From an uncultured Nitrososphaerota archaeon (GTDB lineage: Archaea; Thermoproteota; EX4484-205; JAAOZO01), in contig CAYOYV010000005.1 in the NCBI GenBank assembly GCA_964408285.1, positions 32,001 to 96,000 on the forward strand: a stretch of 64,000 bases of DNA, in the 5' to 3' direction. Position numbers and translations under genes: made by a program. The notes beneath the pieces are model-generated. The model was given only the letters and a program-made list of their open reading frames with translations, was not told the origin of the DNA and made no database searches. The number at the start of each line of letters is the position of its first letter. Position 1 is the first letter of the stretch. This document shows positions 33,411 through 62,681 of this stretch, in pieces.

Positions 33411-33414
33411 GATA

Positions 33415-40286: not shown

Positions 40287-41546
40287 TCAGATCGCGCGCT
40301 GAAGCAGATTGGACCAAGCTTCGCCGAATAGATTCCTCAGATTCTCCCATCCATCAGACCTATCAACGCAAACGTCAGCAAACACCGTGACTCCTTGGAC
40401 CCCTCCGCGCATTGCCTCTTTGACTGATTCGGCCCACTCAGAACCTTGCATGTTGCCGGCAGTCGAGATGGACCGGCCAACGCAAGGCAATACAGAGGGC
40501 TTGCCATTCCATGCCTTGACCTGCTCGAAGATGTTACTCGATATATCCCTGATCCATCTAATGGGCATTCCACTGTCCCTGTGATACAACATCGGGCAGA
40601 TCTTATCCACAGGACCCCGCTGTACCCAATCTGCCCAATCTACGCCCATGGCTTGCTTGTTCCACTCCAGACTTGATGGAACATTAGCAGACAATATGAC
40701 CCTAGGATTTGCTTTCACAATCACATCTCTTACCTCAGACAAGAAGTCGGAGGTGGTTTTTGCCCTCCAGTTGATCCATTCATTGCGGAGAGAGCCACCC
40801 ACAAGTGTATCTCAAGGGCAATCACGTACGGACCTGTCTAGATAGACTTCCAAAGATCTCTTTGCGTTTTCGCTGAAGTCCGCCTCAATACCTGGACGAA
40901 AGCCTAAGTCATCCTCTAGGTTTATGCCATCGACATCATATTCATCAACCAATTCGACTATGTAGGATTCAATATAATTTCTGGCATCTTCGCTAGCAGG
41001 TGATAGGTGATACCATCCATATGATGAAAATGAACCCTTCGATTGGTCCTCGCCCTTCTCGTTGCAAATTCCCCAATCCTGGTGCTCCAGTGTGACTTAA
41101 CGATTTGTCCTGAACCCCACCACGCAAGCCCACACTCCTGGATTGTTCTTGTGCGCTTCCTCAACGAGAAGCTTGAGAGAATCCTCATCCGTCTTCATAA
41201 GTGATCTGAAATCGTTCAGGAATTCCTCGTCATTTCTGACTGTATTGCTCCTAATAGTCCGCCAATCCCCCTGCATGAATGACAAATGGCAACACGACAT
41301 TGAAACCGCTGTCCCTGATTTTCGCAATGAGAGAGGTTAGATTCTTCGAACGCGACCTATCCGGGAAGTCATACATATACATGAATATGCCCTTCGTCTG
41401 GGCTTCGGAGGTTCCTCCTCTGTTGTAACGATCCGGACAGATAGACATGAGAATCCCAGTCTTATCCGTGCTAGAAGCGCTATGATCAGCGTCCGTCTTC
41501 CCCGCAGTACATTGTTCTTTTCCGAGGCCAATAAGGCAGAAATCAC
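40287..41546 (-). pseudogene. Decayed GHL10 (glycosyl hydrolase-like 10) gene
   Basis: The fragments DSGFNVVLPFV, LKLLVEEAHK, LSPASEDARNYIESYIVELVDEYDVDGINLE and VDWADWVQRGPVDKICPMLY are collinear. They are broken by frameshifts (~41395, ~41253) and in-frame stops TAA (41097-41099) and TGA (40812-40814). Confidence 0.78.
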
Positions 41547-47353: not shown

Positions 47354-50146
47354 ATGGCAGAAGCATTTGGGATCGTAGTACCTCACACTCATTGGGACAG
47401 AGAATGGTATCTGACCTACCAAGAGTACAGGCTTAGGCTTGTCAGGGTATTGGACAGGCTTTTGGAGTTGTTTGAGGCAGGATGGAGCGTTCCGTGCTTC
47501 ATCATGGATGGTCAGACATCCGTCCTGGAGGACTATCTGGAATTGCGGCCTGAAAATGAGCGCAGATTAACCAGGCTGATTTCCAAGGGAAGGCTAAAGG
47601 TTGGGCCGTGGTATACGCAACCTGATGAATTCCTGTGCTCTCCGGAATCCATGATCAGGAACCTCTTGATCGCCAGAAAGATGGCAGAAAGGAAAGGTTG
47701 GGTCATCATGGAGATCGGATATGTCCCGGACACATTCGGGCATGTCTCTACCTTGCCAACCATCTTCAGCGGCTTCGGGCTGGACACATTTGTCTTCACA
47801 AGAGGACTTGGCGATGAAGCCAGGAAGCTGCCCCTTGAATTCATATGGGAAGCCCCGGATGGCAGCAAGCTGCTCGCCAGCTATCTATTTAGAGGATATT
47901 GCGCAATGATGGGTCTGGGATATTTGGGAGGCTCCTTTCAGTCAAGGTATGCGGAGACTCCTGAGGGATGGGGATCAGTCTACCTTGATGTGCACTATAG
48001 GGAGCCCTCAATCGACCTAGATGAGGCTCTCAAGAGAGTGCAAGGATTCACTGAGATGGCTCGGAAGAGGTCATCAACAGGGGTCCTCTTGTTTATGAAT
48101 GGCTGTGATCATCTCCCCCCTCAGTCCTCAATAGCGCAAATTGTTGGGCACATCAATGCATGTAGTGATTCTGTGAGACTGAAGATGGGTTCTTTTGAGG
48201 AGTATTTCAAAGAAGTGAAGAAGAGGCTCACAAATCCGGAAGTGCATAGGGGTGAAATGAGAGGTTGCCTCGAAATCCCTCTTCTGTGGGGTGTTACCTC
48301 GACAAGAACCTACCTCAAACAGGAGAATTACAGGGCAACATCCCTCCTTGAATCCTATGCGGAACCTCTGTTGGCAATCGCATGGTTCTTGGGAGCTGAC
48401 CTTCCCGATGCTTCGGTGGAACTTGCATGGAAGCTTGTGCTTCAGAATCAAGCACATGATAGCATATACGGGACCGGCGTTGACCCTCTTCACAGGGAAA
48501 ATGAATCCAGATTCCTGCAGGCAATAGGCATTGCCAGCAATCTTGCATACGATAGTCTCAGGTATATTGGAGAGAGAATGAAGAAGACTTCCGTCTCGCC
48601 ATATGATTCCGAGATCGTCGTATTCAATCCCCATCTGTGCGATCTGCCTGTCCCCGTCGTCTTCCAGGCGCAGATCCTTGACGGACCCATGGAGCTTGTT
48701 GACGACACTGGGGACAGCTTTCCTGTTCAGGCAATTGGAAGCAGCGGAGGCAGCAGCATCGTGACTGGTCTGTCCGATGTCTGCTCAGTCTTAGTCCTGC
48801 CTCAATTCGGCATTAAGAAATTCGGACTGAGGAAACATGCAGCGACACATTACGATCTGCCAAGAGGCCCCAGTTGGATCGAGAATGAGTATTTCAAAGT
48901 GGAGGCAGCCGCTGAGCTCGGAGGAATGCTTCGAGTCACAGACAAGGAACTTCAAAGGGTATTCGACGGATTCAATGTCTTCATTGATGAGGGAGATGCC
49001 GGGGATTCCTATGACTACTCTCCTCCCAAGGAGGATCGCGTCATCAGAAGCGACACTGTGAGCGCAGAAGTCACATCCTATTCGGGACCAGTTAGGGCCT
49101 CGCTGCGCCTGAGGACGACCATCATGGTTCCATCTGCTTCCGATGGAAACAGAAGATCGAGCATTCTAGTGCCCCTGCCGATAATATCTGAGGTCATCCT
49201 TTGGAAAAATGTGCCGAGGATCGATTTCAAGGTGGATGTCGACAATTCGGCCAAAGACCATAGATTTCGGGTCGAATTCCCCCTGGGCTTCGAGGTCAGA
49301 TCCTCAACTTCAGAGGGTCATTTCTCGGTCGTCAGCAGGTCGAAAACGCGACCTACGGGAGAGGGTTGGGTAGAGAAGCCACCCCAGACTCATCCTGCAC
49401 TGAGCTGGGTCGATGCCTCGAACGGAACCCTCGGTTTGATGATTGCAAACAAGGGCACCCCCGAGTACGAACTAACCGAAGACGGAAAGAGACTGCTTAT
49501 TACGCTCTTTAGGTCCATAGGTTGGCTGTCCAAGGAAGACCTTCCCATCCGCCCGGGTCATGCTGGCCCAGGTACAGAGACTCCTGACGCTCAGATGATT
49601 GGCAAATGGAGATTCGAGTACTCGGCGGTACTTCACAGGGGTGATTGGAAGGATTCATACATGATCGCAAGAGGCTTCTCGACACCGCCATTTGCGATCA
49701 CGGTCAGTTCGCTTTCCGAACGTGCCGAGACGAATCGCTCGCCCTGCCCATGCCAGGGGAAACAGCATCCCTCCTCGAGTAGGCTGAGTTCCACAGTCGA
49801 ATCCGTGCCGAAGTCTTCTTGGTCGATCTTGAGCAATGTCGGGGACGAAGTCTCCCTCACTGCCTTCAAGAAAGGAGCACCCAGGGGCTCCCTCCTCTTC
49901 AGGATAGCCGATCTGAGAGGGGAAGGCGCGAAGCCCGTTTTGATCGTCGGAACAGAAGCTCGCGCGATCAGGAATGCTGATTTCTCTGAGAAGCCAATCG
50001 GGCAGATTCCATCATCCAGAAATCAGCCCTTGCAGTTCAGCATGAAGCCAAATGAGGTCAAGACAATATTGTTCTATCCCCGGCGACCTAGAGGCCGTCC
50101 CTCGAACAGCAACGCCAGGTCCTCAAACAAAGCCAGCGCCTCCTGA
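47354..50146 (+). CDS. GH38 alpha-mannosidase (MngB-like)
   Basis: VPHTHWDREWY, MDGQ, VGPWY.QPDEF, PDTFGH, NGCDH, QAHDSIYG, DEGDAGDSY and TLFRSIGWLS. Confidence 0.92.
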   Translation: MAEAFGIVVPHTHWDREWYLTYQEYRLRLVRVLDRLLELFEAGWSVPCFIMDGQTSVLEDYLELRPENERRLTRLISKGRLKVGPWYTQPDEFLCSPESMIRNLLIARKMAERKGWVIMEIGYVPDTFGHVSTLPTIFSGFGLDTFVFTRGLGDEARKLPLEFIWEAPDGSKLLASYLFRGYCAMMGLGYLGGSFQSRYAETPEGWGSVYLDVHYREPSIDLDEALKRVQGFTEMARKRSSTGVLLFMNGCDHLPPQSSIAQIVGHINACSDSVRLKMGSFEEYFKEVKKRLTNPEVHRGEMRGCLEIPLLWGVTSTRTYLKQENYRATSLLESYAEPLLAIAWFLGADLPDASVELAWKLVLQNQAHDSIYGTGVDPLHRENESRFLQAIGIASNLAYDSLRYIGERMKKTSVSPYDSEIVVFNPHLCDLPVPVVFQAQILDGPMELVDDTGDSFPVQAIGSSGGSSIVTGLSDVCSVLVLPQFGIKKFGLRKHAATHYDLPRGPSWIENEYFKVEAAAELGGMLRVTDKELQRVFDGFNVFIDEGDAGDSYDYSPPKEDRVIRSDTVSAEVTSYSGPVRASLRLRTTIMVPSASDGNRRSSILVPLPIISEVILWKNVPRIDFKVDVDNSAKDHRFRVEFPLGFEVRSSTSEGHFSVVSRSKTRPTGEGWVEKPPQTHPALSWVDASNGTLGLMIANKGTPEYELTEDGKRLLITLFRSIGWLSKEDLPIRPGHAGPGTETPDAQMIGKWRFEYSAVLHRGDWKDSYMIARGFSTPPFAITVSSLSERAETNRSPCPCQGKQHPSSSRLSSTVESVPKSSWSILSNVGDEVSLTAFKKGAPRGSLLFRIADLRGEGAKPVLIVGTEARAIRNADFSEKPIGQIPSSRNQPLQFSMKPNEVKTILFYPRRPRGRPSNSNARSSNKASAS

Positions 50147-51144
50147 CATAGCCCCCTCAACCCCAAAACCCGCCCTACCCCATTCCACCCTCAACATCCC
50201 CCCGTTTCCAAAAATCGCACGAAATTCCCCCCTTCTACCCCGCCACAGATCTACGCGATCCACTAATGCAACATCCCCCAATCGCATTCCCCCATCTCCA
50301 GATGGGATTATATATAGATATATATGTCCTCCCCTGTGTCCTGGTCCGTTTCTATCCATCGAATGAATCATCACCTTTCCATATTTCGAACGACACTCGG
50401 GGCCACATGGCTATTCGTCCACATCAAGAATACTCAATCTTTCTGCGGTTGCATATCGCACCATGTCATTATCATTAAGCACTAATGGACCCCCTCTGTC
50501 GTCGCTAACCATGGTTCTTTACCCTCGCTTATGCCCAACGCGACCCTTCATATGATGAGCACTAATAGCAATATACCGATCAGATAGACTATTCTTGTCC
50601 GACAAACCTTGCCCCGTTTGCTCTTCGATTTCTAGTAAAGGTGTACTCCGGACGATTTTCGGAAAAGGCCATGGGGCAGGAACATCAATAGGAATTCCTG
50701 CATAAAATCTTTTATATTATCTATATTATCGCCTCGATGGCCAGCGATCGGTCCATCCGAAGGGAGGACGCGTCCATGGCCTTTAAGGCGCTGAGTGGAC
50801 GAGGCTTGGGGCGGAGCCAAGAGCAGATGTACAATCTTTCGATTTCTGGAAGGGCATCTTGTGCGTTGTGTTTGTAACCGCGATGGAAGGACAGAGGAGG
50901 AGATCAGGAAAATGGCGTTTTCTGACCTAGGGCGACGTAGGGCGAGAGGATGATAACGCAGCTCGTGGCATTCTGAAACGGAGGTTCGGAGCGGCCCAGG
51001 ACATTCTGGGCGTCAGCATCCCCTGGAGCCGGATCGCCCGATCCGTTCCTGGACATGGGTCACTACATCGTGCGCCCTAGTTTCCAATAATAAGGTCAAG
51101 TCGGTTGAGAGGACCTCAATGAGTGGCAAAAATGATAAATAGGA
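50147..51144. other. ~1 kb non-coding region; candidate replication origin or structural locus
   Basis: No credible ORF, C-rich left arm, G-rich right arm, and two AT-rich islands (50307-50327, 50702-50730). Confidence 0.35.
50152..50306. repeat. C-tract-rich low-complexity region (G-quadruplex-type motif on the minus strand) with a degenerate direct repeat
   Basis: Runs of 3-6 C at 50152, 50161, 50169, 50173, 50178, 50188, 50198, 50227, 50238, 50275 and 50289. CAACATCCCCC occurs at 50192 and 50269, each followed by AATCGC and ATTCCCCC. Confidence 0.7.
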
Positions 51145-51468
51145 TTGGTTGGGACGGGAATCCCGGTGGCAGACCACGGCATGATGAGCTACACATTCGG
51201 CATAATACTAGGGATCATACCTGCACTCCTATATGGGCGAATTGGTGGTGACGAATCGATTCTGGCGAAAAGACCTGGATTGATGCGTCTGTTGCATTAT
51301 GTCCACCATTGGATGTTGGGCTTGGCAATTGTCCTTATCGGCTGTCTCCTTTACTACTATGACCCATCATCGACTTTGGAGTTCGTCATAGGGGTGGGCA
51401 CAGGCATGACGATAGATGATCTTCTTTTTCACAGTTTCGAAAACTATTTCCAGCGCAAGGTCAAATGA
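51145..51468 (+). CDS. Small membrane protein, hypothetical
   Basis: Three hydrophobic segments with HYVHHW..G and GMTIDD motifs. The start may be ATG 51181. Confidence 0.65.
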   Translation: MVGTGIPVADHGMMSYTFGIILGIIPALLYGRIGGDESILAKRPGLMRLLHYVHHWMLGLAIVLIGCLLYYYDPSSTLEFVIGVGTGMTIDDLLFHSFENYFQRKVK

Positions 51469-51629
51469 CTATCAAGACAAGGTGATTCTCTTCCGCCTTT
51501 CCCCAATCAGCTAACCCGGTCGATGTCGTCTTCTTTCGCAGGAAGACCCACTGTGATTCTTATGGGCATGGTTGCCGAGAATCGAACAATATACCCGCAG
51601 CAATTCGATTGAGACTTATAAGCTGATTA

Positions 51630-52676
51630 GTGACGGAGTCCGCAAGGGAGCACAATCCCATGGACTTTCTCGGTATCGAGATACCTGACTACGGCATGGC
51701 CATAATCATAATGGGTGCTTTTCTCATCTTGGCACAAGTGTTTCTGTATCTCATGAAGGCCTACCTCGGCAAATACGCGCGAGCGACTGCAACCGCCTTG
51801 GACGATGATCTCGTGAATGCCCTGCGGATTCCAGGCTCGTTGACCCTGTTATTCATGGGCTTTGACCTCAGTTTCCCCTATCTTCAAGCCTACATCGACC
51901 CGACGCTCGCCGACCTAATACTGAAGGTGGACGATGCCATTCTGATTGGTTTGTTCGGATTCGTCTTCTACAGAGCCTTCAACGTCATCATCCAATGGTA
52001 TGGCACCTTTGTCGCCAAGAGAACTGCGACAAGAATAGATGACATAATAATCCCGATAATCAGAAGATTTGGAAAACTCCTCATAGCTGCCATTATTTTC
52101 ATCATAGTTCTCTATATGTTCAATGTGGACATCACGGCCCCAATAGCAGGTTTGGGTCTAGCTGGCCTCTCAGTTTCGCTTGCTGCCCAAGATACGATAG
52201 CGAACTTCATCGCAAGCGTCTTCCTTTTCACGGACAGGCCTTTCGGTGAGGGAGATACAATCCAGCTTCCTACCGGTGAAGTCTGTGAGGTGATTGAGAT
52301 AGGAGTGAGACGAACCAAGCTCTTCGATGTGAACAGCAACAACTACATTGTCGTGACCAATTCCGATCTGGCGAAATGGAAGATCACGAATCTGACTCTT
52401 CCCACCAGAAAGCTCAGAATGAGCATCCCGATCTCCGTGGAAGCCCACCAAGATCTCGAAAAAATAAAGGAGCTAGTATTAAAGGTGGCATCCGGAAGCC
52501 CTCATGTCGCAAAGGACCCTCAACCCCAGATTCTCTGTACGGGTTTGTCCGCATTGGCCATGAAACTGGAGCTGATCGTCTATATCGATGATTTCCACGA
52601 TCGATTGATCACCATGGACGAGATCTATTCCGAAGTGAAGAGAGTCTTCGCCAAGGAGAGCATCCGCTTGATCTGA
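51630..52676 (+). CDS. Small-conductance mechanosensitive channel (MscS family)
   Basis: AGLGLAGLSVSLAAQDTIANF, DRPFGEGD, EIGVRRTKL, VTNS and ITNLT. Confidence 0.92.
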   Translation: MTESAREHNPMDFLGIEIPDYGMAIIIMGAFLILAQVFLYLMKAYLGKYARATATALDDDLVNALRIPGSLTLLFMGFDLSFPYLQAYIDPTLADLILKVDDAILIGLFGFVFYRAFNVIIQWYGTFVAKRTATRIDDIIIPIIRRFGKLLIAAIIFIIVLYMFNVDITAPIAGLGLAGLSVSLAAQDTIANFIASVFLFTDRPFGEGDTIQLPTGEVCEVIEIGVRRTKLFDVNSNNYIVVTNSDLAKWKITNLTLPTRKLRMSIPISVEAHQDLEKIKELVLKVASGSPHVAKDPQPQILCTGLSALAMKLELIVYIDDFHDRLITMDEIYSEVKRVFAKESIRLI

Positions 52677-52762
52677 AGGAGCTGGGAACACCTCCTGTCA
52701 GATGGGGAAAAACAGATGGGATCAGGCTCCTAAAAGCTGATTCATGATGCTTCCGCCCCCAT

Positions 52763-54580
52763 TCACCTGACTCCTCCTCCGCCTCCACCGAATCCCCCGC
52801 CGCCTCCGAAACCTCCTCCACCGCCACCCATGCCTCCCCCTCCTCGAGAGCTCTTGGGAGCCACCCAGGTCACGATTGGATGGAAGGTTGTATACATCCT
52901 TGGTACGAATTCGGCCATTTCAACCGGAACATTGAGTACCTTCATGGCTTCTGCTACCTTATCACCAACGCCAAGGGCCGTCCCATATGCAAGCCACTCC
53001 CCCCACATTGCTAGATCCTGAGGTGCATATTGCCTGATTAGAGCGAGGTCAGAAAGGAAGCTCCTGAATGCGTCCCACTCCAATCTCTCCTTGTATGTAT
53101 CCTTCTTCCATTTTCCAAACAATGTTGATGGAAAGGCCATCGCGATAATTGTCTGAGCCAGCGGAATGAGCGACATGAAATGCGATTCTCCCCACGACAA
53201 ATATGGCAGGACAGGAATCATCTCTTCTGCTAGGAACCCCCCAATGAATAAAACGATCGGCAGGGGAAGGAATGCCAAAAGCTTCTTTCTCCCCTCCTCT
53301 ACGAACTCACTTCCGACTTCCGGATCCGCTTTATGGAATAAGTAGACATAGTCCCTTTGCATCTCCATCAGGAATCCGTAGCTTCTCTCTGATGATTGAG
53401 CACGAATCAGCTCCTTGAGCTTGTCAGATTCAACCACTCCATCTACGCTCATTTTCTGTAGGAAGCCGAGGGCTCTGAGTTCGTAGTGGTCTCCGTGGTT
53501 TGGATCGAGTACCTTGATCGACAAAGAGTCCCCGTGACTCGATATCTTGATCTTGCCCTTCATGTGGAGATCCAACAGAGTGGCATAGAATCCATTTTGA
53601 TCGAAGTCAAACGCATCATCGCTGAATACCAAATTGACGAGCCAAGGTTTTCTATCCTTGTTCGGCACGAAGCTAAGGTAAGAAGGAACCACGAACATCC
53701 GTTCTCTTCCGAACAGAAAATAGACTACAATGAATAATGCAGGATATACGAACATCAGGACTACCGGCGCCATGTTGACAAGAAGTGCAACATAATACTG
53801 GGCAGAGTATGCCAGATTCGCCTGGTCCGTCTGCCCCTTGACATCATTCATTGGTGTTGAGAATGACGCCAGGAGCTTCAGAACGTCCTTCTTAAGGAGC
53901 ATCTCAATTTCGATCATCTCATTTCTGGCGGCAGTTCCCGATATGATGACCCTATCCCCGTTCTTCGTCACCTTCAATAGAGGAGGATGTGGATATAGCT
54001 CTACAATGTATTCGGCATCCTCCAGAACTATCCTGACATCTCGATACGGGATATGCTCGTTTGCCAACTTCAAGTTGAGATGAACTAGGTTCTGATCATT
54101 CTGAGTCGGCGGGAATATCCTGAATCTGTACGTGACTGCGTAAATCCCGGCCGACAGCCTTTCTGGCTTATAGCAACCTACCTCATTTGACACTGCCAAT
54201 TGCGCTATCGCACTCACAATGGCGGGATTCCGGTCATACGGCGGATCGACCCAAACGGAACCTTCGTTGTCCTTCATGTATCTTACTAGGCCTTCGGGAG
54301 CAGATATGGACAGCAACCTTATGTACGGTTCGTTGAGCTTGTCCCTTGTAAGAGGGGCCTCCCATGTCCTATACAGCATCCTGTATCTCCCTGAGACTCC
54401 TATATTGTAGAGGTAGTCCTCAACAAGGGTCCCATTCGCAAAGAGGGTAGCGTGATATTCATCTGCAGCTACACGTTCCTCCTCAATTCCCCCGGCAACG
54501 AATCTTGTGAGGGAGAATCCGATAGCTCCTACTGCTACGGTGATGATGACGAGTGCCGAAATGAGCTTGGTCTCAGACAA
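52763..54580 (-). CDS. DUF2207 family membrane protein with Gly-rich tail
   Basis: Extracellular beta domain, TM helices, ATLLDL..KG, WDAFRSFLSD, WGEWLAYGTALGV and a GGGFGGGGGFGGGGGG tail. Lies downstream of lemA. Confidence 0.88.
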   Translation of the reverse strand: MSETKLISALVIITVAVGAIGFSLTRFVAGGIEEERVAADEYHATLFANGTLVEDYLYNIGVSGRYRMLYRTWEAPLTRDKLNEPYIRLLSISAPEGLVRYMKDNEGSVWVDPPYDRNPAIVSAIAQLAVSNEVGCYKPERLSAGIYAVTYRFRIFPPTQNDQNLVHLNLKLANEHIPYRDVRIVLEDAEYIVELYPHPPLLKVTKNGDRVIISGTAARNEMIEIEMLLKKDVLKLLASFSTPMNDVKGQTDQANLAYSAQYYVALLVNMAPVVLMFVYPALFIVVYFLFGRERMFVVPSYLSFVPNKDRKPWLVNLVFSDDAFDFDQNGFYATLLDLHMKGKIKISSHGDSLSIKVLDPNHGDHYELRALGFLQKMSVDGVVESDKLKELIRAQSSERSYGFLMEMQRDYVYLFHKADPEVGSEFVEEGRKKLLAFLPLPIVLFIGGFLAEEMIPVLPYLSWGESHFMSLIPLAQTIIAMAFPSTLFGKWKKDTYKERLEWDAFRSFLSDLALIRQYAPQDLAMWGEWLAYGTALGVGDKVAEAMKVLNVPVEMAEFVPRMYTTFHPIVTWVAPKSSRGGGGMGGGGGGFGGGGGFGGGGGGVR

Positions 54581-54591
54581 TCTCCCCTCAC

Positions 54592-55155
54592 TTAGAACTC
54601 TATCTTCGGCGGCTTCTCAATCTCTTCCTCGAACTTGAGATAATCCATTCTTCCTAGCCCCGTAAGACCGGCCACGAATTTAGATGGAACCGTGTCCATC
54701 ATTATGTTGAATTGCTGGATTATGTTGTTATAGGTGTATCTTTGCCTTGCTATTTCGTCCTCGACGCTCTTCACAGAATCCATAAGATTCGTGACCGTGC
54801 CTGATGTTTTTAGATCAGGATACGCCTCCGCGACTGCAACTATGTTGCCGAATATCCGCCTCGACTCGCGGTCTATCTCACCCAAATCGGTGGCCCCTGC
54901 TTTGGCTATCCCGCTCCTTAGGCTCGTTACCTTTTCCAGAACCTCTCTTTCGAATCTTGCATAGCTTTTGACCGAATCAAGCAACTGCTCGATCATGTCA
55001 AGTCTCTTCTTCATCGCGACCCTAATCTGACCAAGAGTGGCATCGGCTGAATTCTTCAGGCTGAAGAACCTGTTATAGATTCCTATGACGTAGAGAATCA
55101 CAAGAATGGCGATGAGCGCAACGAATCCTATTATGGCAAGTGATAACAAGTCCAT
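54592..55155 (-). CDS. lemA: LemA family protein
   Basis: N-terminal TM, YNRF, KKRLDMI..L, YARFERE, AEAYPDLK, EDEIARQRYTYN and VPSKFVA. Confidence 0.93.
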   Translation of the reverse strand: MDLLSLAIIGFVALIAILVILYVIGIYNRFFSLKNSADATLGQIRVAMKKRLDMIEQLLDSVKSYARFEREVLEKVTSLRSGIAKAGATDLGEIDRESRRIFGNIVAVAEAYPDLKTSGTVTNLMDSVKSVEDEIARQRYTYNNIIQQFNIMMDTVPSKFVAGLTGLGRMDYLKFEEEIEKPPKIEF

Positions 55156-55161
55156 TTCCCT

Positions 55162-56055
55162 TTACCTCGCGGTGCGAACGTGCCACATCCTCTTAAAGCT
55201 TGCTTCATCAGGATTGCCCCCGTGACTATTGTCAGGAAGGACGACAGTTGCCTGCAGACCTTGATTGCCTGATGACGGTTTGGACCTTATGCTCAGAACA
55301 AGTATGATGAATAGAATCAAACAGGAAAATACAGGTATAGTAACAGAAACAGGCAGACCGAGAATTGATGTGAGCAAGTCACTTTCCTGGGATTCAGACG
55401 CAGGATAGTCACCTAGTTCGCCTTCGGCGTAATATCTCACCAGCTCCATATAACGTGTCCAATTCCAGTTCCCACCGGGGTCATAGTGATGGCTTGCTCC
55501 CCCTCCCAGATTGACATTCTTCGGATCAGGAACTTGGTCATGACCTATGATTCCACTGCCTTTCGAAGGGTCTGCTGGGGCAAGACCGATAGGGTGATTC
55601 AAAGATATGTTATATTTTCTCACGAGGTATCCCACCATCTTGGCTGATCCACGGTATTCCTTGTCGGTGAACAGATCCTGATCCGCATAGCCAGCGTGCT
55701 CAATTCCTATCGAGTGTTCGTTGTAGGCCCAATTCCCCGCGTGCCAAGCTATGTCCTTGTCCCTGACCATCTGATAGATATTCCCCTCATAGTCCACCAC
55801 ATAGTGGGAACTGGCCTTCGCTCTGATATCCTTGAACCAATTCATTGCTGCCTGCGCAGTGCCTTCTATATCGTGTATCACTATCCATCTTATAATCAAT
55901 CCGTTGGATTCCCTATCGCTCTCCGTGAAATTCGAGCTCAGCGCGGGCTCCCACTCAGCGCCGGGATAATCCGTGCTTGATGATATGGCAAAACCTAGGA
56001 GCATCATCCCCAAGAGAAGAAGAGCGATTGATACGACTGCCCGAACCGATCCCAC
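55162..56055 (-). CDS. Zn-dependent N-acetylmuramoyl-L-alanine amidase (Amidase_2/AmpD/PGRP family), with signal peptide and C-terminal TM anchor
   Basis: IVIHDIEG, SSHYVV, QMVRDKDIAWHAG, SIGIEH, IIGHDQV and HYDPG, with hydrophobic N- and C-terminal helices. Confidence 0.92.
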   Translation of the reverse strand: MGSVRAVVSIALLLLGMMLLGFAISSSTDYPGAEWEPALSSNFTESDRESNGLIIRWIVIHDIEGTAQAAMNWFKDIRAKASSHYVVDYEGNIYQMVRDKDIAWHAGNWAYNEHSIGIEHAGYADQDLFTDKEYRGSAKMVGYLVRKYNISLNHPIGLAPADPSKGSGIIGHDQVPDPKNVNLGGGASHHYDPGGNWNWTRYMELVRYYAEGELGDYPASESQESDLLTSILGLPVSVTIPVFSCLILFIILVLSIRSKPSSGNQGLQATVVLPDNSHGGNPDEASFKRMWHVRTAR

Positions 56056-56113
56056 GATCGGATTGGTTGCTTTGCCTCTAATAAGAATTGCGATTCAGCG
56101 CTGCAATCTAACG

Positions 56114-56145
56114 TTAAAATAGTTGCCAGAGAAATCCCTCTGGCA
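56114..56145 (+). promoter_or_regulatory. TATA-like box (TTAAAA) followed by an 8-6-8 inverted repeat TGCCAGAG-AAATCC-CTCTGGCA in the amidase/GHL10 divergent intergenic region
   Basis: TTAAAA at 56114-56119 and a perfect 8-bp inverted repeat at 56124-56145, ending 3 bp before ATG 56149. Confidence 0.5.
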
Positions 56146-56148
56146 TCA

Positions 56149-57444
56149 ATGAGCCCATCATGCACCGAAATCGCCAGTTTCGAAGCGGGCTTGCTCTTGC
56201 TGCTTGTGCTTGTGGCTGTGGCTCGGACTTGCCATCCAGATGCGGGATCCTTCGTGGCAGAAGTCTGGTTGGGGATGTATAGCGATAACTGGTCAAGTGA
56301 CAAGCAAACTTGGTCGAAGCAAGTTGACGAGCGATTCAGTTCTCTGAGGGAGGCCGGGATCGATGCAATTTATTTCATGGTGAAGGACCCTTGGGGATAT
56401 GTATATTATGAATCGAAGTATGCTCCATTATCTTCGAAGTACAGCTGGGATCTCTTGAAGGAAGTCCTTGAGAAGGCGAAATCGTACAATCTGAAGATCT
56501 ATCCCTACGTAAACGCTCTCGCTGAGGGCGAATCCCAACCTGGTTTCTATCTAAATGCTCATCCAGAGATGGCAATCCTTTCTACCTCAGATGAAAGAGG
56601 ATGGGTGGATCCTTCGAGTACTGAGTACATTGACAGATTGGTCTCAATCGTGGAGGAGATAGCGACGAACTATGATATCGATGGTATTCAGTTGGATAGA
56701 ATCAGAATGCCGGGGAGGGTAATCAGAGCGAAGGCCAGTCAGGAACTCTACAAGCAATTGACAGGCCTGTCCCCTCAAGACGATGATACGAAATGGCAAG
56801 ACTTCATGAGAGAACGGGTTACGCAGGTGGTCGTACGAGTTAAGGAAAGACTGAAAGCCATAGACCGCGACCTCAGATTCTCAGTTGCCGTTTTTCCCTC
56901 TCCCTTGAGTGCTCGGACAAACCAACTCCAAGACTGGACTAGATGGGTCAAAGAAGGTTATGTGGACTATGTCTGCACAATGGCATATGCCCAAGGAATC
57001 ATGACCTTCAAGTCCTATGTAGATGAGGAAATGAAGGAGTCAACTCCCTCTAGGCTTCATGTGGGCATTGCTGCCTATCTTCTGGGAGCAGCCGATTTGA
57101 GCCTTCAGATGAAATATGTTGTTCTTGATTCTGGTTTGCCTGCAGTTGTCTTCTTCAATGGGGACGCCCTAACGTCGAACAAAGATCTCCTGAGCGCAAT
57201 AGCGAAAGGAAAGGAGGGTCAATTTGAAAAAGAATCTCCATATGGATTTCTCCTTACGGGGGCTGGTATTGCAGCCATTGCGGGAGTCCTTGCCGTCTTC
57301 CTGCTTGCTAGGAGGAGAAGGAAACCTGCCAACCTGATTGCTGCTGCACTTCCCTCACATGCTGCTTGGTTCATCTTGTCAGGGACGGGAACGGACCCGG
57401 TTTCATCACAGGTCCCCTACGCCAAGGCAGGACATAGTAACTAA
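56149..57444 (+). CDS. GHL10 (YddW/DigH-like) glycoside hydrolase with signal peptide and C-terminal TM anchor
   Basis: AGIDAIYFMV, WDLLKEVLEKA, WVDPS, YDIDGIQLD, FSVAVFP, QDWTRWVKEGYVDYVCTMAY and a TM helix followed by RRRRK. Confidence 0.88.
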   Translation: MSPSCTEIASFEAGLLLLLVLVAVARTCHPDAGSFVAEVWLGMYSDNWSSDKQTWSKQVDERFSSLREAGIDAIYFMVKDPWGYVYYESKYAPLSSKYSWDLLKEVLEKAKSYNLKIYPYVNALAEGESQPGFYLNAHPEMAILSTSDERGWVDPSSTEYIDRLVSIVEEIATNYDIDGIQLDRIRMPGRVIRAKASQELYKQLTGLSPQDDDTKWQDFMRERVTQVVVRVKERLKAIDRDLRFSVAVFPSPLSARTNQLQDWTRWVKEGYVDYVCTMAYAQGIMTFKSYVDEEMKESTPSRLHVGIAAYLLGAADLSLQMKYVVLDSGLPAVVFFNGDALTSNKDLLSAIAKGKEGQFEKESPYGFLLTGAGIAAIAGVLAVFLLARRRRKPANLIAAALPSHAAWFILSGTGTDPVSSQVPYAKAGHSN

Positions 57445-57481
57445 AGGAAGCATTAGGTCTGTAAGAGTTAAATCATCGAGT

Positions 57482-57913
57482 ATGAAGTCTGACCTAGATT
57501 TGAACATCAAGATCTTCTTGACAAGTATCTCGGGAGAGAGATTTTGGGATGTGGACGTGCCACCTCCGCCTCAATTGCAGATAGGAGTCAACATAAATGT
57601 CCTAGACATGAAACAGAAGTCAGAGAGTTCTGCTGAAGTGCCCTTCATTCTGACCGTTCAATACACCCCATCGATGGGGCAACTGACAGCAAAAGGCAGG
57701 GCGGGAATTGATGGAACGGCTGAGGAAATAGCACAGCTGAAGTCAGGCGTGCAGACGAATCAGCTTCCGACGATGGTGGTTCAGGCCGTCAGCAGCTTCG
57801 TCATGGGTGAACTTGTAATCCTCAGCAAATCGCTGGGCCTGCCGCCCCCACTGCCACCCATGGTGCCCCAGACTCAGCTGACGCAGGAAGGGCAACAACG
57901 CTTCACAATCTGA
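57482..57913 (+). CDS. Conserved archaeal hypothetical protein, possible SecB-like fold
   Basis: Four beta-strand-like segments, then helices ending ILSKSLGLPPPLP. ATG 57482 is preceded by TTAAA. Confidence 0.65.
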   Translation: MKSDLDLNIKIFLTSISGERFWDVDVPPPPQLQIGVNINVLDMKQKSESSAEVPFILTVQYTPSMGQLTAKGRAGIDGTAEEIAQLKSGVQTNQLPTMVVQAVSSFVMGELVILSKSLGLPPPLPPMVPQTQLTQEGQQRFTI

Positions 57914-57994
57914 TGATTCTGGCTTACTCCATCTTTTTCTTGCATAGGCAGAGATGCAACGTACCGGCGACTTGCATGAGAGGAAGCATCAGGC

Positions 57995-60106
57995 TTGGGA
58001 ACAGTTATCAACACGTATCGACGCACTGCCTCAATGGTCCGCGGGACATGTAATCCCATAGTGACGGAAAAAGGCCGGAAAATCACTTTCGAGATCCTCT
58101 GGAAGGACAAGCCCCCGATTGATGTGAGATTGGTGAAACCGTCGAACCCGGTTCTAGAGCTGGGAGTGAGGACGAAGAGGCATGGGATTCGGATAGCCTA
58201 CGACGATACTGACAGAGAAGGATTGTATCTATTCAATATCGTCAGTGGCCAAACCAAAAGGAAACGGTGTGTCTTGGTTGGCGATTTGATCGCAGATTGG
58301 TATACCGCGTCCATGGCCATAGAGCAAGGCAAAGAGGGAATTGTGAGACACCTCGACTCATTCTCGCAACATGGAAATCTGATTGTCCTACATCATCTGA
58401 CTGGTCCTGAAGGCGTCTTCTACGAGAGTCGGCAATTCCCAATCGCTGAGAACGCAGAACCTGCCCTAATAGATTTCTTTCTTTCGGAATCAGCACGAAG
58501 GGGATGCACTGTTCTCTTTTCCTATCACTGGGTTCCTGATGACTACATCAACATGTGGAGACATCCTTCCCCTAAGCAGATATTTCAGGCCAAGAGGGTC
58601 ATAGAGGAACTCCATCAACGATACTCTCGTTACGATTCTATGGCAGGATTCTATGCATACTGGGAGCCCGGAGATGTGCAGGATCTCCCATACTATCGAG
58701 AGACGATGGATTACGTCAAGCGACTTGACACTGGTCTATTCACCGCGTGTGCGCCCTATGTCTTCTCCACCGAAAGATACCAGGGAGGATCGCTTCCGTT
58801 GATATTCTCTGCGCTGTCTTCTGTCCGATCTCTTGATTGTTTTATACCCCAATCAAGTGTTGCGGTCTTTCCTTACCCATTGAGTAGAACAAAGGATCAT
58901 ATTCTGCTTGCAGCTGCTTCATCGAGTGGCCTAGGGAAAATAGTCCTCGGTCATGTTGAGACTTTTGGAAGATCGTTTGTCAAGGGAGAATCTGCACCTC
59001 CTTCTTCATTCATTGAGGCCCAGATACTCGGTGCTTCATTGACAAGTGGGGCTTCTGGAGATGCATTCTTCGTCTATGCCTATCTGCTTGGTAGGAGACC
59101 GAATGAGAATGGCTCCATTGAGAGGGCAATGAAATTCCTCAAGCTCACAGGTCCCCACAGAAGGAAGCCGATTCCAGTGGCCGTCTATTCCCCCCTTCAA
59201 GCGTCTCACTGGCCCAACGTTCTAAGTCCTTTTCTCCTGAGGACTCGAAAGCTGGGCTTGGACCTCGGTGTTGTACAGCCCCCTTTCTCGTGTGACAGGA
59301 AATGGAAGAGATGGATCAAGTCAAATGTCAAGGTGCTTATTCTGCCCGATCCTCCTGAACTCGTAGAATCGGAGGCCGGATTCCTGGCGGAATATATCAA
59401 AGACGGAGGGGAACTCGTAGTTATCGGCTATCCTCCTAGCGGGATCCGGAAACTGATGGGAATCGAAAGCAGGAACATAGGGAGATATGGTGGCCTCAAG
59501 CTGCTGAGAGCATTGGGCGAAAGGGTATCGATTGACACTGTGAGTAGATTCGGGTTCGAGCTAGTCTTTTGCGCTACATGTGTGGAGGCAGAGCCCCTAG
59601 CAGTCTATGAATCAATCCCCTCCGGATATCAACCCGGGGCCTATGCCATCGCGAGGATGCAGAGAGGCCGAGGTTCTGGATTCTTCATCGGACTTCCATC
59701 AGCTTTGCTGCTCGAGAAAATCCCGAATATCCTGCTTGACATTCTGGATGCCGCTCTGTCAAGGAATGACCTTCGGATTCCTTGGGAAGTCAGAGGTCTG
59801 ACCGATGAATGCGACTTGATGAGCAAGGAGGATTTCTTGGCAGCAGTGAACTATGCAGAAAAGGAGATCGAGGCGACCGCTATCTTTCGAGGCGCAGTGG
59901 GGAGAAGGTCTCTCCAATTGATCGGAGATGCGTATCCTGTGAGGCATTCTGGGGAAGCAATTGAGCTAAGACTCCTGCTTAGGCAATGTAAGCCAGCAGG
60001 GGCCGTTCTCGTGAGACAATCGGGAGTGGATTGCCCAAACGCGATGGAATGTGATGAACTCCCAGATTCAGTTAAGCCACAGGATCAATCGCTGGCAACC
60101 CAATGA
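57995..60106 (+). CDS. Putative glycoside hydrolase (DUF4434-like TIM barrel plus beta-galactosidase-trimerisation-like domain)
   Basis: ELHQRYSRYDSMAGFYAYWE, PQSSV and HVETF, with C-terminal VLILPD..EYIKDGGELVV and RGRGSGFFIG. The start may be ATG 58034. Confidence 0.55.
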   Translation: MGTVINTYRRTASMVRGTCNPIVTEKGRKITFEILWKDKPPIDVRLVKPSNPVLELGVRTKRHGIRIAYDDTDREGLYLFNIVSGQTKRKRCVLVGDLIADWYTASMAIEQGKEGIVRHLDSFSQHGNLIVLHHLTGPEGVFYESRQFPIAENAEPALIDFFLSESARRGCTVLFSYHWVPDDYINMWRHPSPKQIFQAKRVIEELHQRYSRYDSMAGFYAYWEPGDVQDLPYYRETMDYVKRLDTGLFTACAPYVFSTERYQGGSLPLIFSALSSVRSLDCFIPQSSVAVFPYPLSRTKDHILLAAASSSGLGKIVLGHVETFGRSFVKGESAPPSSFIEAQILGASLTSGASGDAFFVYAYLLGRRPNENGSIERAMKFLKLTGPHRRKPIPVAVYSPLQASHWPNVLSPFLLRTRKLGLDLGVVQPPFSCDRKWKRWIKSNVKVLILPDPPELVESEAGFLAEYIKDGGELVVIGYPPSGIRKLMGIESRNIGRYGGLKLLRALGERVSIDTVSRFGFELVFCATCVEAEPLAVYESIPSGYQPGAYAIARMQRGRGSGFFIGLPSALLLEKIPNILLDILDAALSRNDLRIPWEVRGLTDECDLMSKEDFLAAVNYAEKEIEATAIFRGAVGRRSLQLIGDAYPVRHSGEAIELRLLLRQCKPAGAVLVRQSGVDCPNAMECDELPDSVKPQDQSLATQ

Positions 60107-60753
60107 ACAGCATTCTTGATTATCAACTGCACATTCGGATCGCGGAATGTTGGAAACGTCTCGTGCCCCGCTCTGAAGTAGAAGATCTTGCCTTTGCCTG
60201 CGGTCCAAGTCAGACCTGAACGGAATACCGCGCCGTCAGTCTCGAAAACCGACACTAGGACCAGATCCTTGGGTCTTGGAATGTCGAAGGGTTCGCCGTA
60301 CATTTCCTCCTTGGGGAGGATGAAGTCAGACACCCCTTGCGATATCGGGTGAAATCGGTCGACGATGTGCACGCGCTCTGACTTTCCATCTTCGCGCCAA
60401 CTTCCGAGGCTGCATTTGGTGCCCATCAGCTTGATGAATGGTTTGGAGAAGTGCGAGGAATGCAGAGCGATGAAACCCATTCCTTCGTTCCTAACCCTTC
60501 CGACAACTCTCTCAACTGCTTCTTCGGGGACTTGTGCATGCTTCTGATGACCCCACCAAATCAGAACATCGGCTCTGGAAAGAATTTCCTCGTTAAGGCC
60601 GGAGTCCGGATCCGAAATCTGGGATGTGACTGCCCTTACGCCAGGCACTCTGTTCAGATAGTCTGCCAACTCACCATGTATGCCCTTCGGATAGACTCCT
60701 TTGGGCTCCGTGAATTCTGACCAAGCTAGAACGTTCAGTGTTACGGGGTTCAT
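60085..60753 (-). CDS. ThuA family (trehalose utilization) protein
   Basis: VYPKGIH, LIWWGH, GMGFIALHSSHFSK, EEMYGEPFDIP, VFRSG and YFRAGHETFP. Confidence 0.9.
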   Translation of the reverse strand: MNPVTLNVLAWSEFTEPKGVYPKGIHGELADYLNRVPGVRAVTSQISDPDSGLNEEILSRADVLIWWGHQKHAQVPEEAVERVVGRVRNEGMGFIALHSSHFSKPFIKLMGTKCSLGSWREDGKSERVHIVDRFHPISQGVSDFILPKEEMYGEPFDIPRPKDLVLVSVFETDGAVFRSGLTWTAGKGKIFYFRAGHETFPTFRDPNVQLIIKNAVHWVASD

Positions 60754-60932
60754 GCTTCCAATCTATCGCTCAGTCTTTTGGATACGGTTAAACGTTTCGG
60801 GCAACATCCGTCTTCCAAGAAATCGCCTCATAAAGGGTGAGACCAGAAGGCTCCAGCCGCATTGCAGAGACGACGAGACCGTAGGATGGTCTGGGCTTTA
60901 AATAGCTGGGAAGTCGCATTCACTGTTAAAGG

Positions 60933-61853
60933 ATGGTTGACATAGTCCCCTTTGAGCAGGAAATGCTGAAGCGGATAAACAGAGCCGCCAATCGAAATCT
61001 CAGCCACGACATTATCTCCCACGACACATTCAAAAGAATGACCATATTAGATCCTAATTTCGATAGACAATATTCTCTGGTTGCATTGGATCAGGGCATT
61101 GAGGTCGGATTCCTGCTCGGGGTGAGAAGAACGAGGGCTCCTGAAGCCATGGTCAGCAAACAGAAGGACATAGCCTGGGTGAAGCTCTTCTTCGTCGAAA
61201 AACATCTTAGGCGGTCTGGGATAGGCTCGCAGCTTTTCGCCCAATTCGAGGCGATGATGGAAAAGAATGGAATTAGCAAAATCAGGATATCCGATTACCC
61301 TGCTTGGAACCTGACATCAGGACTGGACGTAAGATATGAGGAGGCAATCGAATTCCTTTCTAGAAGGGGATATAGAAAGGTCGGGGAGACGGTTGACTAC
61401 GAGATAGATTTGCTTGACTTTTATGTCCCAAGAAGAATCATGGGCTTCGAGAACGGGGAGGTCACCACCAGAAGAGCGGAGCAATCTGAGAGGATGAGGG
61501 TGATAGAGTGGGTCGAGAAGCTCTTCTCGACATTCTGGAGAGTAGAGGCCGATCGGGCCTTCGACTACGAGAAGCCAAAGATCTGGATAGCAGAGCAGGG
61601 TGATCGCATCATTGGATTCTCCGTATACAGCGCTTTCGAACCCAGTTGGTTCGGTCCGATTGGTGTTGAACCAGAGGTCAGGACGAGGGGTATAGGATCT
61701 CTTCTGCTTTTCAATTCGCTCAGGGACATGAGGGAAGAAGGACAGAGGATAGCAGTAGTACCCTGGACCAGCCACCTCTTCTTCTACGCACAGGTTCCCG
61801 GAATAAGAAGGATACGGCATTATTGGATAATGGAGAAGACTCTGACGGCGTAA
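60933..61853 (+). CDS. Tandem-domain GNAT N-acetyltransferase
   Basis: VEKHLRRSGIGSQL and FGPIGVEPEVRTRGIGSLL motifs. Paralog of 16037..16957. Confidence 0.85.
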   Translation: MVDIVPFEQEMLKRINRAANRNLSHDIISHDTFKRMTILDPNFDRQYSLVALDQGIEVGFLLGVRRTRAPEAMVSKQKDIAWVKLFFVEKHLRRSGIGSQLFAQFEAMMEKNGISKIRISDYPAWNLTSGLDVRYEEAIEFLSRRGYRKVGETVDYEIDLLDFYVPRRIMGFENGEVTTRRAEQSERMRVIEWVEKLFSTFWRVEADRAFDYEKPKIWIAEQGDRIIGFSVYSAFEPSWFGPIGVEPEVRTRGIGSLLLFNSLRDMREEGQRIAVVPWTSHLFFYAQVPGIRRIRHYWIMEKTLTA

Positions 61854-61883
61854 ATGGGGCGCAGCATTTCGGAAAGATTCCGC

Positions 61884-62681
61884 TCAAAGTGATCTGTCTT
61901 CGATGAAAGGTATCACGAACGCAGCAATGAATCCCAGAGATATGGAACACAAGAGCAGCAACGCAGTATCAGTAATCGGACGTATGACGACGAAGTAGAG
62001 GACTCCGATGAGTGCAATACTTCCGACTGCGAAAATCCCCCTTTTGATTCGATTGCCGGGTTCTCTTAGATTTCTGCGCTCTGCCAGGAAGTATCCGCTC
62101 AGGACACCAATGAGAATTCCGTTCGTGATGGCATTTGCCTGAAGGCCCAGTCCGGACCAAAATGAAAGAAGAAAAAGGACTACAGGCACGGTCAGCCATA
62201 TGATTCTATTCCATCGTCCGAGACGGGAGGACAAATCGGATCTCTGTATGACTATGGAAAGCGACAATACCGCGAGGCCCGTGATCCACCCTCCTATGAT
62301 GTCCAGAGGATAATGGACGCTTAATGCGATTCTGGAATAGGAGACAAGCAGAACAGTCGCAATTGACATCAAGCCCAGAGGGAGGTTGCTGAAGTTATAT
62401 GAGAGATAGCCCCAAAGCACCACGCTTCCTTGGGCATGTCCACTAGGAAATCCGTACCCCTCTACCGCAACCTTCCACAACTCTGTGGGAGGTCTCGGCA
62501 TCTTGAAGAAATCCTTCGCGATGGCATTGATGCACATGTTCAGGAGAACCACTGTCGATACTCTGGCTCCTAGCCTTCTCTCATAAAAGAGATAGATAAG
62601 CGAAAGAATGACGATGTAGAATCTCTCCTCCCCCAATTGTGTCACTGCCAGCCAAATGAAATCCACAACTTCCATAGGCAA
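61884..62681 (-). CDS. PAP2 family membrane phosphatase
   Basis: KDFFKMPRP, GFPSGH and SRIALSVHYPLD motifs, with multiple TM helices. Confidence 0.92.
   Translation of the reverse strand: MPMEVVDFIWLAVTQLGEERFYIVILSLIYLFYERRLGARVSTVVLLNMCINAIAKDFFKMPRPPTELWKVAVEGYGFPSGHAQGSVVLWGYLSYNFSNLPLGLMSIATVLLVSYSRIALSVHYPLDIIGGWITGLAVLSLSIVIQRSDLSSRLGRWNRIIWLTVPVVLFLLSFWSGLGLQANAITNGILIGVLSGYFLAERRNLREPGNRIKRGIFAVGSIALIGVLYFVVIRPITDTALLLLCSISLGFIAAFVIPFIEDRSL

Follow-up and report, generated by a model that had tools for sequence, protein, structure and literature searches.

In Bacillus subtilis, N-acetylmuramic acid (MurNAc) is recovered through a murQ-murR-murP-amiE-nagZ-namZ operon: a secreted amidase, NagZ and NamZ jointly digest peptidoglycan, and MurQ converts MurNAc-6-P inside the cell (PMC8054146). 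The available text of that paper makes no mention of archaea. The GHL10 hydrolase DigH (YddW) of Escherichia coli, whose specificity is for denuded glycans, works with the septal amidases (PMC12288456), and Cwp19 of Clostridioides difficile is a GHL10 lytic transglycosylase for which Asp196 is the proposed catalytic residue (PMC5765458, PMC6016235). DogH, a further GHL10 member, is reported to act on starch (PMC9967864). An amidase and an endo-N-acetylglucosaminidase are united in the bifunctional Atl protein of Staphylococcus aureus (PMC6262408). From archaea, the modular peptidoglycan hydrolases Woldo and Danwoldo of Halogranum salarium have been described (PMC12352652), and GH23 peptidoglycan hydrolases of DPANN archaea have also been published (PMC9723730); these outlines follow the available portions of the cited papers. 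Here we describe a divergent gene pair in a 64,000-nucleotide stretch of DNA from a sediment Thermoproteota archaeon (positions 32001–96000 of the 113,234-bp contig C5 of genome G000; hereafter, the window). One gene encodes an Amidase_2 zinc amidase and the other a GHL10-family TIM-barrel protein. With fair confidence, we interpret the two products as the tethered surface front end of a peptidoglycan-scavenging pathway.

The initial annotation had proposed a divergent pair, separated by a 93-bp spacer, of Amidase_2 and GHL10 enzymes. The list of open reading frames (ORFs) bears out this arrangement (Table 1), and Pfam scans bear out the identities. The first protein matches PF01510 with E 6e-30 (104.7 bits against a cut-off of 26, profile positions 5–130 of 131), and the second matches PF02638 with E 9.7e-31 (107.5 bits against a cut-off of 27.9). 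The amidase gene is the sole Amidase_2 gene in the genome, and its GTG start is backed by the homologue P0002, which is 77% identical and has the same N-terminus. In the protein, a hydrophobic segment at residues 6–24 is followed by the catalytic domain (~55–207), a linker of ~25 residues, a membrane helix at 238–256 and a tail of 41 residues. Residues His61, Glu119, His172 and Asp192 align with His34, Glu116, His154 and Asp164 of E. coli AmpD, of which we take the two histidines and the aspartate to be zinc ligands and Glu116 to be the catalytic glutamate. These positions are invariant across 14 aligned sequences; that of AmpD Lys162 is occupied by His190. Judged from the alignment, the window amidase appears to keep an intact His-His-Asp zinc site and the catalytic glutamate, and it is likely to be a hydrolase of the MurNAc-L-Ala amide bond.

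Among solved structures, the amidase matches only AmpD (E 6e-5). A quick maximum-likelihood tree of 51 amidase domains unites the window protein, the split forms and the first two of the fusion types described below in a 23-row group (SH-aLRT 89) that adjoins bacterial sequences; the branch that carries the PGRP-type fusions is very long. Archaeal names in this tree come from a source only for P0004, P0006, P0027, P0122 and P0126; metagenome proteins tagged 'arch_' carry the tag by similarity alone.

The GHL10 protein comprises an N-terminal hydrophobic helix, a barrel spanning residues ~36–355, a membrane helix at ~364–389, the sequence RRRRK and a disordered tail. In its AlphaFold2 model (pLDDT 89.4), an eight-stranded barrel lies between helices 6–27 and 364–389. 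The top Foldseek matches of this model are the Cwp19 entries 5oq3 and 5oq2 (for 5oq3, E 2.3e-21 and a TM-score of 0.76 on the target), followed by the C-terminal domain of PgaB, and Cwp19 is also the best sequence match in the PDB (E 2.7e-4). The protein has weaker matches to the related DUF4015 and GHL6 models. Its active-site motif is QLDRIR, as in all amidase-linked relatives, compared with QFDDYF in DigH and HFDDYF in Cwp19. The Asp-Asp pair found after strand 4 (Asp195-Asp196 of Cwp19) is replaced by Asp183-Arg184; several conserved pocket residues of Cwp19, Tyr297, Gly328 and Phe367 among them, have equivalents, mapped by eye. For 147 of the 150 best representatives, the residue pair at this site is Asp-Tyr in 120, Asp-Arg in 18 (including the 12 best), Asp-Phe in 6 and Asp-Asp in 1.

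Identity to E. coli DigH is 24% over 298 columns (E 5e-16). The term 'DigH-like', used in the initial annotation, holds at the level of the Pfam family, but with this identity and Asp-Arg in place of Asp-Asp the protein is not of the DigH type. For the same two reasons a preference for denuded glycan cannot be deduced from homology; action on such strands is suggested only by the linkage to amidases. An exhaustive HMMER search returned only 14 of 1.84 billion representatives at E<=1e-30, and the top six include four amidase fusions and one neighbour from the genome G039, discussed below. On this search the 'QLDRIR' proteins form a small and distinct clade. The host genome has 15 PF02638 matches, which fall in ~12 genes; this pronounced expansion of GHL10-like barrels is spread over contigs C2, C3, C4, C5, C7, C8, C13, C19, C22, C34 and C39; the other paralogues carry different motifs, mostly of the 'LDYIRYP' type.

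The initial annotation would have counted a complete lack of adjacency in relatives as a refutation, but a synteny survey of a phylum sample of 401 genomes shows that adjacency does occur. Amidase matches occur in 12 of these genomes, 10 of them strong and 2 weak (E ~1e-7). When the neighbourhoods of the nine strong-amidase genomes outside G000 were searched with the window proteins, GHL10 was found beside the amidase in three. G039 has the same divergent pair, its GHL10 being 64% identical; G031 has a divergent pair in which both genes are broken by stops or frameshifts; and in G111 the two domains share one open frame of 531+ residues that runs off the contig end. Such a GHL10 is absent from the available DNA around the amidase in the other six, three of whose contigs are shorter than 7.4 kb.

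Natural fusions extend this linkage. In a search of a 5.8-billion-protein collection with the G111 fusion, 22 of the 120 clusters listed hold both PF01510 and PF02638, and Pfam scans together with hydropathy assign three architectures. The first consists of signal, Amidase_2, GHL10 and membrane helix (~590 residues); the second, found in 8 clusters, of an N-terminal anchor, a Thr/Pro stalk, GH18, Amidase_2 and GHL10 (~860–925 residues); and the third of signal, a PGRP-type Amidase_2 that starts with a PGRP-like motif, GHL10 and membrane helix (~520–585 residues). Organism names are attached to three of the fused clusters, archaeal in each case, and the triple fusion occurs in a Desulfurococcales metagenome-assembled genome (MAG). 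The amidase of P0145, which has the third architecture, matches PGRP structures at E 1.6e-26 and is 27% identical to the window amidase over 99 residues. Fusion with two unrelated Amidase_2 subtypes means that the joining of this GHL10 clade to an amidase took place on at least two occasions. The conserved adjacency and the fusions show that the two enzymes are functionally coupled, and the initial view that they work as a module is upheld.

The remainder of a MurNAc-catabolic pathway is encoded elsewhere in the genome. MurQ exceeds the cut-offs of NF003915 (405 against 168 bits), NF009222 (395 against 255) and TIGR00274 (373.9 against 302). It is preceded by a BadF/BadG-family sugar kinase (64 bits against the NagK equivalog cut-off of 370), and a GH84-like N-acetylglucosaminidase is nearby. 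NamZ (NamZ_N, 302.5 bits, and NamZ_C) is followed by a second BadF/BadG kinase, and there are two GH3 genes. Because no Mur_ligase_M was found in this 93.7%-complete genome, peptidoglycan would be a substrate foreign to the host, as had been supposed at the outset and in keeping with the MurNAc-catabolic context.

The association is repeated across the phylum sample, in which 37 of the 401 genomes carry MurQ and 41 NamZ. MurQ is present in 10 of the 10 strong-amidase genomes as against 27 of the 391 others, NamZ is present in 9 of the 10 (the exception being a genome that is 57% complete), and all 8 genomes with a GHL10 ortholog (E<=1e-40) have both. In G174, an OPT peptide transporter, an Orn/DAP-type decarboxylase, GH3, a BadF/BadG kinase, MurQ and NamZ lie within 19.5 kb of the GHL10 ortholog, and the amidase adjoins an amino-acid permease and a GH18 enzyme. 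The triple fusion of the Desulfurococcales MAG directly follows a five-gene Opp/Dpp-type ABC importer operon. NamZ and MurQ are also found within a few kilobases of one another in many Thermoproteota genomes (for example, G080 C1, G297 C9, G039 C3 and G174 C1), and ~9–10% of the sampled genomes carry NamZ/MurQ, far more than carry the amidase or the 'QLDRIR' GHL10.

Kyte–Doolittle profiles with 19-residue windows peak at residues 6–24 and 238–256 of the amidase and at 7–25 and 368–386 of the GHL10 protein. Basic residues follow each C-terminal helix (IRSK in the amidase, RRRRK in GHL10); the N-region of GHL10 has no positive charge, and that of its G039 ortholog does. The N-terminal signals and C-terminal anchors claimed for both proteins are present as hydrophobic segments, of which the N-terminal one may be either a signal peptide or an uncleaved anchor. 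The profiles are consistent with export and an outward-facing, membrane-anchored topology, in which the barrel would stand ~10 residues from its membrane helix and the amidase catalytic domain ~25 residues from its own. A conserved 'LL(x)PLLSLP'-like motif occurs right before the C-terminal helix of the amidase (residues ~225–236) and of P0003, P0009, P0010 and P0011. It resembles the layout of a sorting signal, yet the cytoplasmic tails are long (30–45 residues).

Enzymes held at the surface in this way might serve as an antibacterial weapon in competition or predation, breaking open the walls of living neighbours on contact, with feeding a secondary benefit at most. A study of archaeal peptidoglycan hydrolases documents bactericidal action and, in its available text, ties patchy distribution to weapon-like turnover (PMC12352652); here 12 of the 401 genomes have the amidase, and among close relatives the genes are variously gained, lost and decayed. 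The Thr/Pro-rich stalk of the triple fusions (~40 residues) could reach outward. The much shorter tethers of the window proteins, however, would keep both enzymes close to the producer's membrane and, from what is generally known of archaeal envelopes, beneath an S-layer. Neither protein has a cell-wall-binding domain, and Pfam and NCBIfam scans of the window reveal no toxin, immunity or secretion-system gene beside the pair. Moreover, the module occurs only in MurQ-bearing genomes, and importers or catabolic genes adjoin it in two lineages. Tether length and catabolic setting both speak for feeding rather than killing, and we consider a weapon distinctly unlikely. Of the two roles that the initial annotation had offered, scavenging gains from the MurQ/NamZ context, whereas contact killing becomes the less likely with so short a tether and a distribution restricted to MurNAc-catabolising genomes.

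From the genes and domains, the amidase catalytic residues, the GHL10 fold, the adjacency, the fusions and the co-occurrence described above, we propose a scavenging scheme whose export step, topology, order of action, GHL10-cut bond, uptake route and nutritional purpose are predictions. After export, both proteins would stay anchored through their C-terminal helices to the outside of the membrane. The amidase would strip MurNAc of its stem peptides in pieces of bacterial wall, and the GHL10 barrel would act on the same glycan, where its most plausible task would be to cut or bind strands freed of peptide. NamZ, the GH3 and GH84 N-acetylglucosaminidases, the BadF/BadG-type kinases and MurQ, all encoded elsewhere in the genome, would finish the products and yield GlcNAc-6-P and D-lactate for growth.

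A number of observations weigh against this assignment, and all the genomes concerned are MAGs. Pfam scans of the two proteins detect the catalytic domain only, with no peptidoglycan- or cell-wall-binding domain. The second aspartate, proposed to be catalytic in Cwp19, is Arg184 in the GHL10 protein; an Asp-Arg GHL10 may use another mechanism, cut another bond or only bind glycan. Peptidase_S66 (LD-carboxypeptidase) was not found in the host genome, and no transporter is linked to the pair within the window. The genomes in which the genes co-occur fall in only five families, and the counts given above overstate their independence. No such GHL10 was found near the closest bacterial amidases (0 of 38 loci by tblastn at E<=1e-4, several loci being only 1–6 kb long), and genetic linkage or fusion of the two seems to be an archaeal feature here. 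The pairing on which the initial annotation relied does recur in relatives, but it is not obligatory. Five amidase genomes have no intact copy of the 'QLDRIR' subtype, three GHL10 genomes have no amidase at the locus and no room for one there, and both genes look decayed in G031. On these comparisons the module appears to be accessory and in flux.

With ~12 GHL10-like genes in the genome and DogH reported to be active on starch, membership of the family says little about substrate. It may be that only the amidase acts on peptidoglycan, that the GHL10 subtype degrades some other polysaccharide and that the linkage reflects co-regulated surface hydrolases. The size of the paralogous family, a window rich in sugar-catabolic genes (GH38, UxaE and ThuA; Table 1), an Asp-Arg motif unlike that of the two peptidoglycan-active GHL10 enzymes, the reported activity of DogH and the retention of GHL10 in the three genomes lacking the amidase would all fit. 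Against this stand the covalent fusion of the clade to two unrelated amidase subtypes in 22 clusters, the presence of MurQ and NamZ in 8 of 8 genomes with the subtype, a GHL10 gene inside the MurNAc locus of G174 and the different motif of the other paralogues in the genome. We regard a separate GHL10 substrate as improbable.

Anchoring in the producer's own membrane would also suit enzymes that remodel an endogenous archaeal envelope polymer or glycoprotein. The GH18 domain of the triple fusions has a weaker GH85 match, and the GH18 and GH85 families include endo-N-acetylglucosaminidases acting on N-glycans. Such a role is nevertheless highly improbable, for the genome has no Mur ligase with which murein or pseudomurein could be made, the genes are accessory and patchily distributed (12 of 401 genomes, pseudogenes among them) and travel with MurNAc-specific catabolic genes, and Amidase_2, according to the Pfam family description, is known only on MurNAc-L-Ala bonds.

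We also considered whether the contig stems, wholly or in part, from bacterial contamination or chimeric assembly, the possibility that the initial annotation had named as fatal to its case. The MAG (1.82 Mb, 93.7% complete) is in 46 contigs with an estimated contamination of 2.64%, and both enzyme families are typically bacterial. No RNA gene emerged from Rfam and tRNA scans of the window, and no archaeal small-subunit ribosomal RNA was found in the genome, so its taxonomy rests on protein evidence. That evidence is archaeal: the genome encodes ribosomal protein L15e, of archaeal/eukaryotic type, and the window contains archaeal-type DUF7345/DUF7343 genes. The best organism-named matches of the amidase are MAGs labelled Brockarchaeota (the closest), Thaumarchaeota and Thermoplasmatota, and named loci with relatives include Nitrososphaerota, Desulfurococcales, Thermoproteales and Halobacteriales MAGs. 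The housekeeping protein NadE, encoded in the same window, is 60–62% identical to its same-order relatives, in the range of the amidase (55–66%) and GHL10 (60–61%), and GC content is flat over the window (0.48–0.52).

A second archaeal MAG has the same gene pair on a contig of 280,820 bp, and orthologs are found on further archaeal contigs. Contigs from four other sediment-metagenome runs cover 29–30 of the 30 bins of 50000–62000, mostly at >=99% identity, and span the LemA/amidase junction and that between the GHL10 end and the downstream gene; positions 56119–56134, inside the spacer, are bridged by none of the pieces listed, which are short, low-depth contigs. The stretch is carried by sediment metagenomes of several studies, with no RNA dataset among the carriers listed. 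The host is archaeal, as the initial annotation had it, and the contig is without obvious chimerism; an artefact is most improbable. Loose ends and a 327-bp skip within LemA, seen in the contigs from other runs, probably belong to LemA genes of other organisms.

Table 1. Features of the gene pair and its surroundings, in window coordinates
Feature	Position	Strand	Size	Remarks
Tagaturonate epimerase UxaE	31848-33473			sugar catabolism
GHL10b paralogue, decayed copy	40287-41510	-		3 in-frame stops
GH38 alpha-mannosidase	47354-50146			sugar catabolism
DUF2207 protein	52763-54580	-	605 aa	Gly-rich C-terminus
LemA	54592-55155	-	187 aa
Amidase_2 zinc amidase	55162-56055	-	297 aa	GTG start; ORF list and PF01510
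Divergent intergenic spacer	56056-56148		93 bp	two A/T-rich TATA-like boxes
GHL10-family TIM-barrel protein, 'QLDRIR' subtype	56149-57444	+	431 aa	ATG start; ORF list and PF02638
191-aa ORF	57338-57913	+	191 aa	no family; overlaps GHL10 3' end
703-aa ORF	57995-60106	+	703 aa	no Pfam family; system membership uncertain
ThuA-like protein	60085-60753			sugar catabolism

The spacer contains the box TAAGAATT (~56081-56088), ~26–33 nt from the amidase start, and the box TTAAAATA (~56115-56122), ~27–34 nt ahead of the GHL10 ATG. Near-identical boxes recur in the orthologous spacer of G039, and we view them as putative promoters.

The GHL10b copy in the window is 50.6% identical over 389 residues to GHL10b of G039 (tblastn), and its PF02638 match has stops inside it; it is probably a pseudogene. 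Intact GHL10b, with a motif containing Asp-Asp, adjoins the GHL10/amidase locus in G039, G135, G006 and G071, the last three being genus g4 genomes in which GHL10 and GHL10b lie back to back.

A homologue of the 703-aa ORF lies directly downstream of the orthologous GHL10 gene, full-length in G135 and G071 and cut by the contig end in G006, and the ORF has 54–56% identity to sequences beside GHL10 in the loci L086 and L088 (tblastn). Only four related proteins were found in the 5.8-billion-protein collection. The ORF matches no Pfam or NCBIfam family and has no N-terminal hydrophobic segment; a language-model search pointed to DUF4434/GH42, a lead only, and an AlphaFold2 model (pLDDT 39, from a 4-row alignment) was set aside. 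It is possibly a cytoplasmic glycoside hydrolase. The 191-aa ORF fills a 550-bp gap that is absent from G135 and G071, where the 703-aa ORF directly follows GHL10, and may be a real gene or the remnant of an insertion.

On the other side of the pair, the LemA and DUF2207 genes follow the amidase on the same strand after a 6-bp gap. They were considered as parts of the system and rejected, since none of 11 related loci has them next to the amidase. In family f27 (L028/G080 and L027/G205), the amidase adjoins a DUF2330 protein and a class IV aminotransferase, and in L028 also a transglutaminase-like protein with TSP3 repeats. The class IV aminotransferase family includes D-amino-acid transaminases, and this neighbour may bear on the use of D-amino acids from stem peptides.

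Comparison with the described systems brings out what is familiar and what is not. Like the B. subtilis operon, the archaeal genome has NamZ, GH3 and MurQ homologues together with a predicted extracellular MurNAc-L-Ala amidase. Unlike B. subtilis, the host has no peptidoglycan synthesis, so that the pathway would be only catabolic. The amidase, unlike AmiE, belongs to Amidase_2, a GHL10 protein is added, and the front-end enzymes are membrane-tethered or fused; where B. subtilis has the phosphotransferase-system protein MurP, which is not expected here, BadF/BadG-type kinases stand beside the archaeal MurQ and NamZ. The E. coli amidases and DigH offer the same combination of an amidase and a GHL10-family enzyme on one wall polymer, within the same Pfam family, but DigH remodels its producer's own septum. 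Cwp19 is anchored by cell-wall-binding repeats, whereas the archaeal GHL10 would be anchored by a membrane helix. Atl sets a precedent in that one polypeptide combines an amidase with a glycan hydrolase for action on peptidoglycan, yet its glycosidase is of another family, its bacterial producer makes murein and has it as an autolysin, and the protein is processed and wall-bound rather than membrane-anchored.

Nearest in setting are Woldo and Danwoldo, which are likewise exported peptidoglycan-cleaving enzymes of murein-free archaea, acquired from bacteria and patchily distributed. The window proteins differ from them in being tethered and not released, in pairing or fusing two or three catalytic domains, and in travelling with MurNAc catabolism. 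As its available text states, the survey in PMC12352652 counted only proteins with both a catalytic and a cell-wall-binding Pfam domain; with no binding domain, the pair falls outside that modular definition. The terms Amidase_2, GHL10, PF01510, PF02638, Brockarchae and transmembrane occur 0 times in the main text of that paper, as far as it is available. In the literature searched, with subscription journals outside its range, no Amidase_2-GHL10 fusion and no archaeal MurQ/NamZ pathway is described. Archaeal peptidoglycan hydrolases are already known; the literature searched yielded no domain-poor, tethered and fusion-prone module with ties to MurNAc catabolism.

A bolder reading of the 'QLDRIR' clade, doubtful but worth stating, is that it represents a new catalytic type in which the arginine reads the free lactyl carboxylate left by the partner amidase, so that the enzyme would work only after peptide removal. 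With NamZ and MurQ, it would then complete a previously unrecognised route for the consumption of bacterial walls in a sizeable fraction of sediment and hot-spring Thermoproteota (~9% have MurQ and NamZ). Were this so, archaea would recycle bacterial murein directly and would possibly also lyse it on contact.

Much carbon and nitrogen in sediments is present as peptidoglycan, whose degradation is generally attributed to bacteria. The scavenging pathway that we favour would provide a concrete gene set for murein consumption by murein-free archaea, comprising a tethered amidase, a distinct GHL10 subtype, NamZ, sugar kinases and MurQ, and this set is found in several Thermoproteota families. Through the fusions with two unrelated amidase types, it would point to a probable substrate for a branch of GHL10 about which little is known. 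It would also extend the archaeal peptidoglycan hydrolases to proteins without a cell-wall-binding domain, outside the definition given in the available text of PMC12352652, and would move the emphasis from warfare to feeding.

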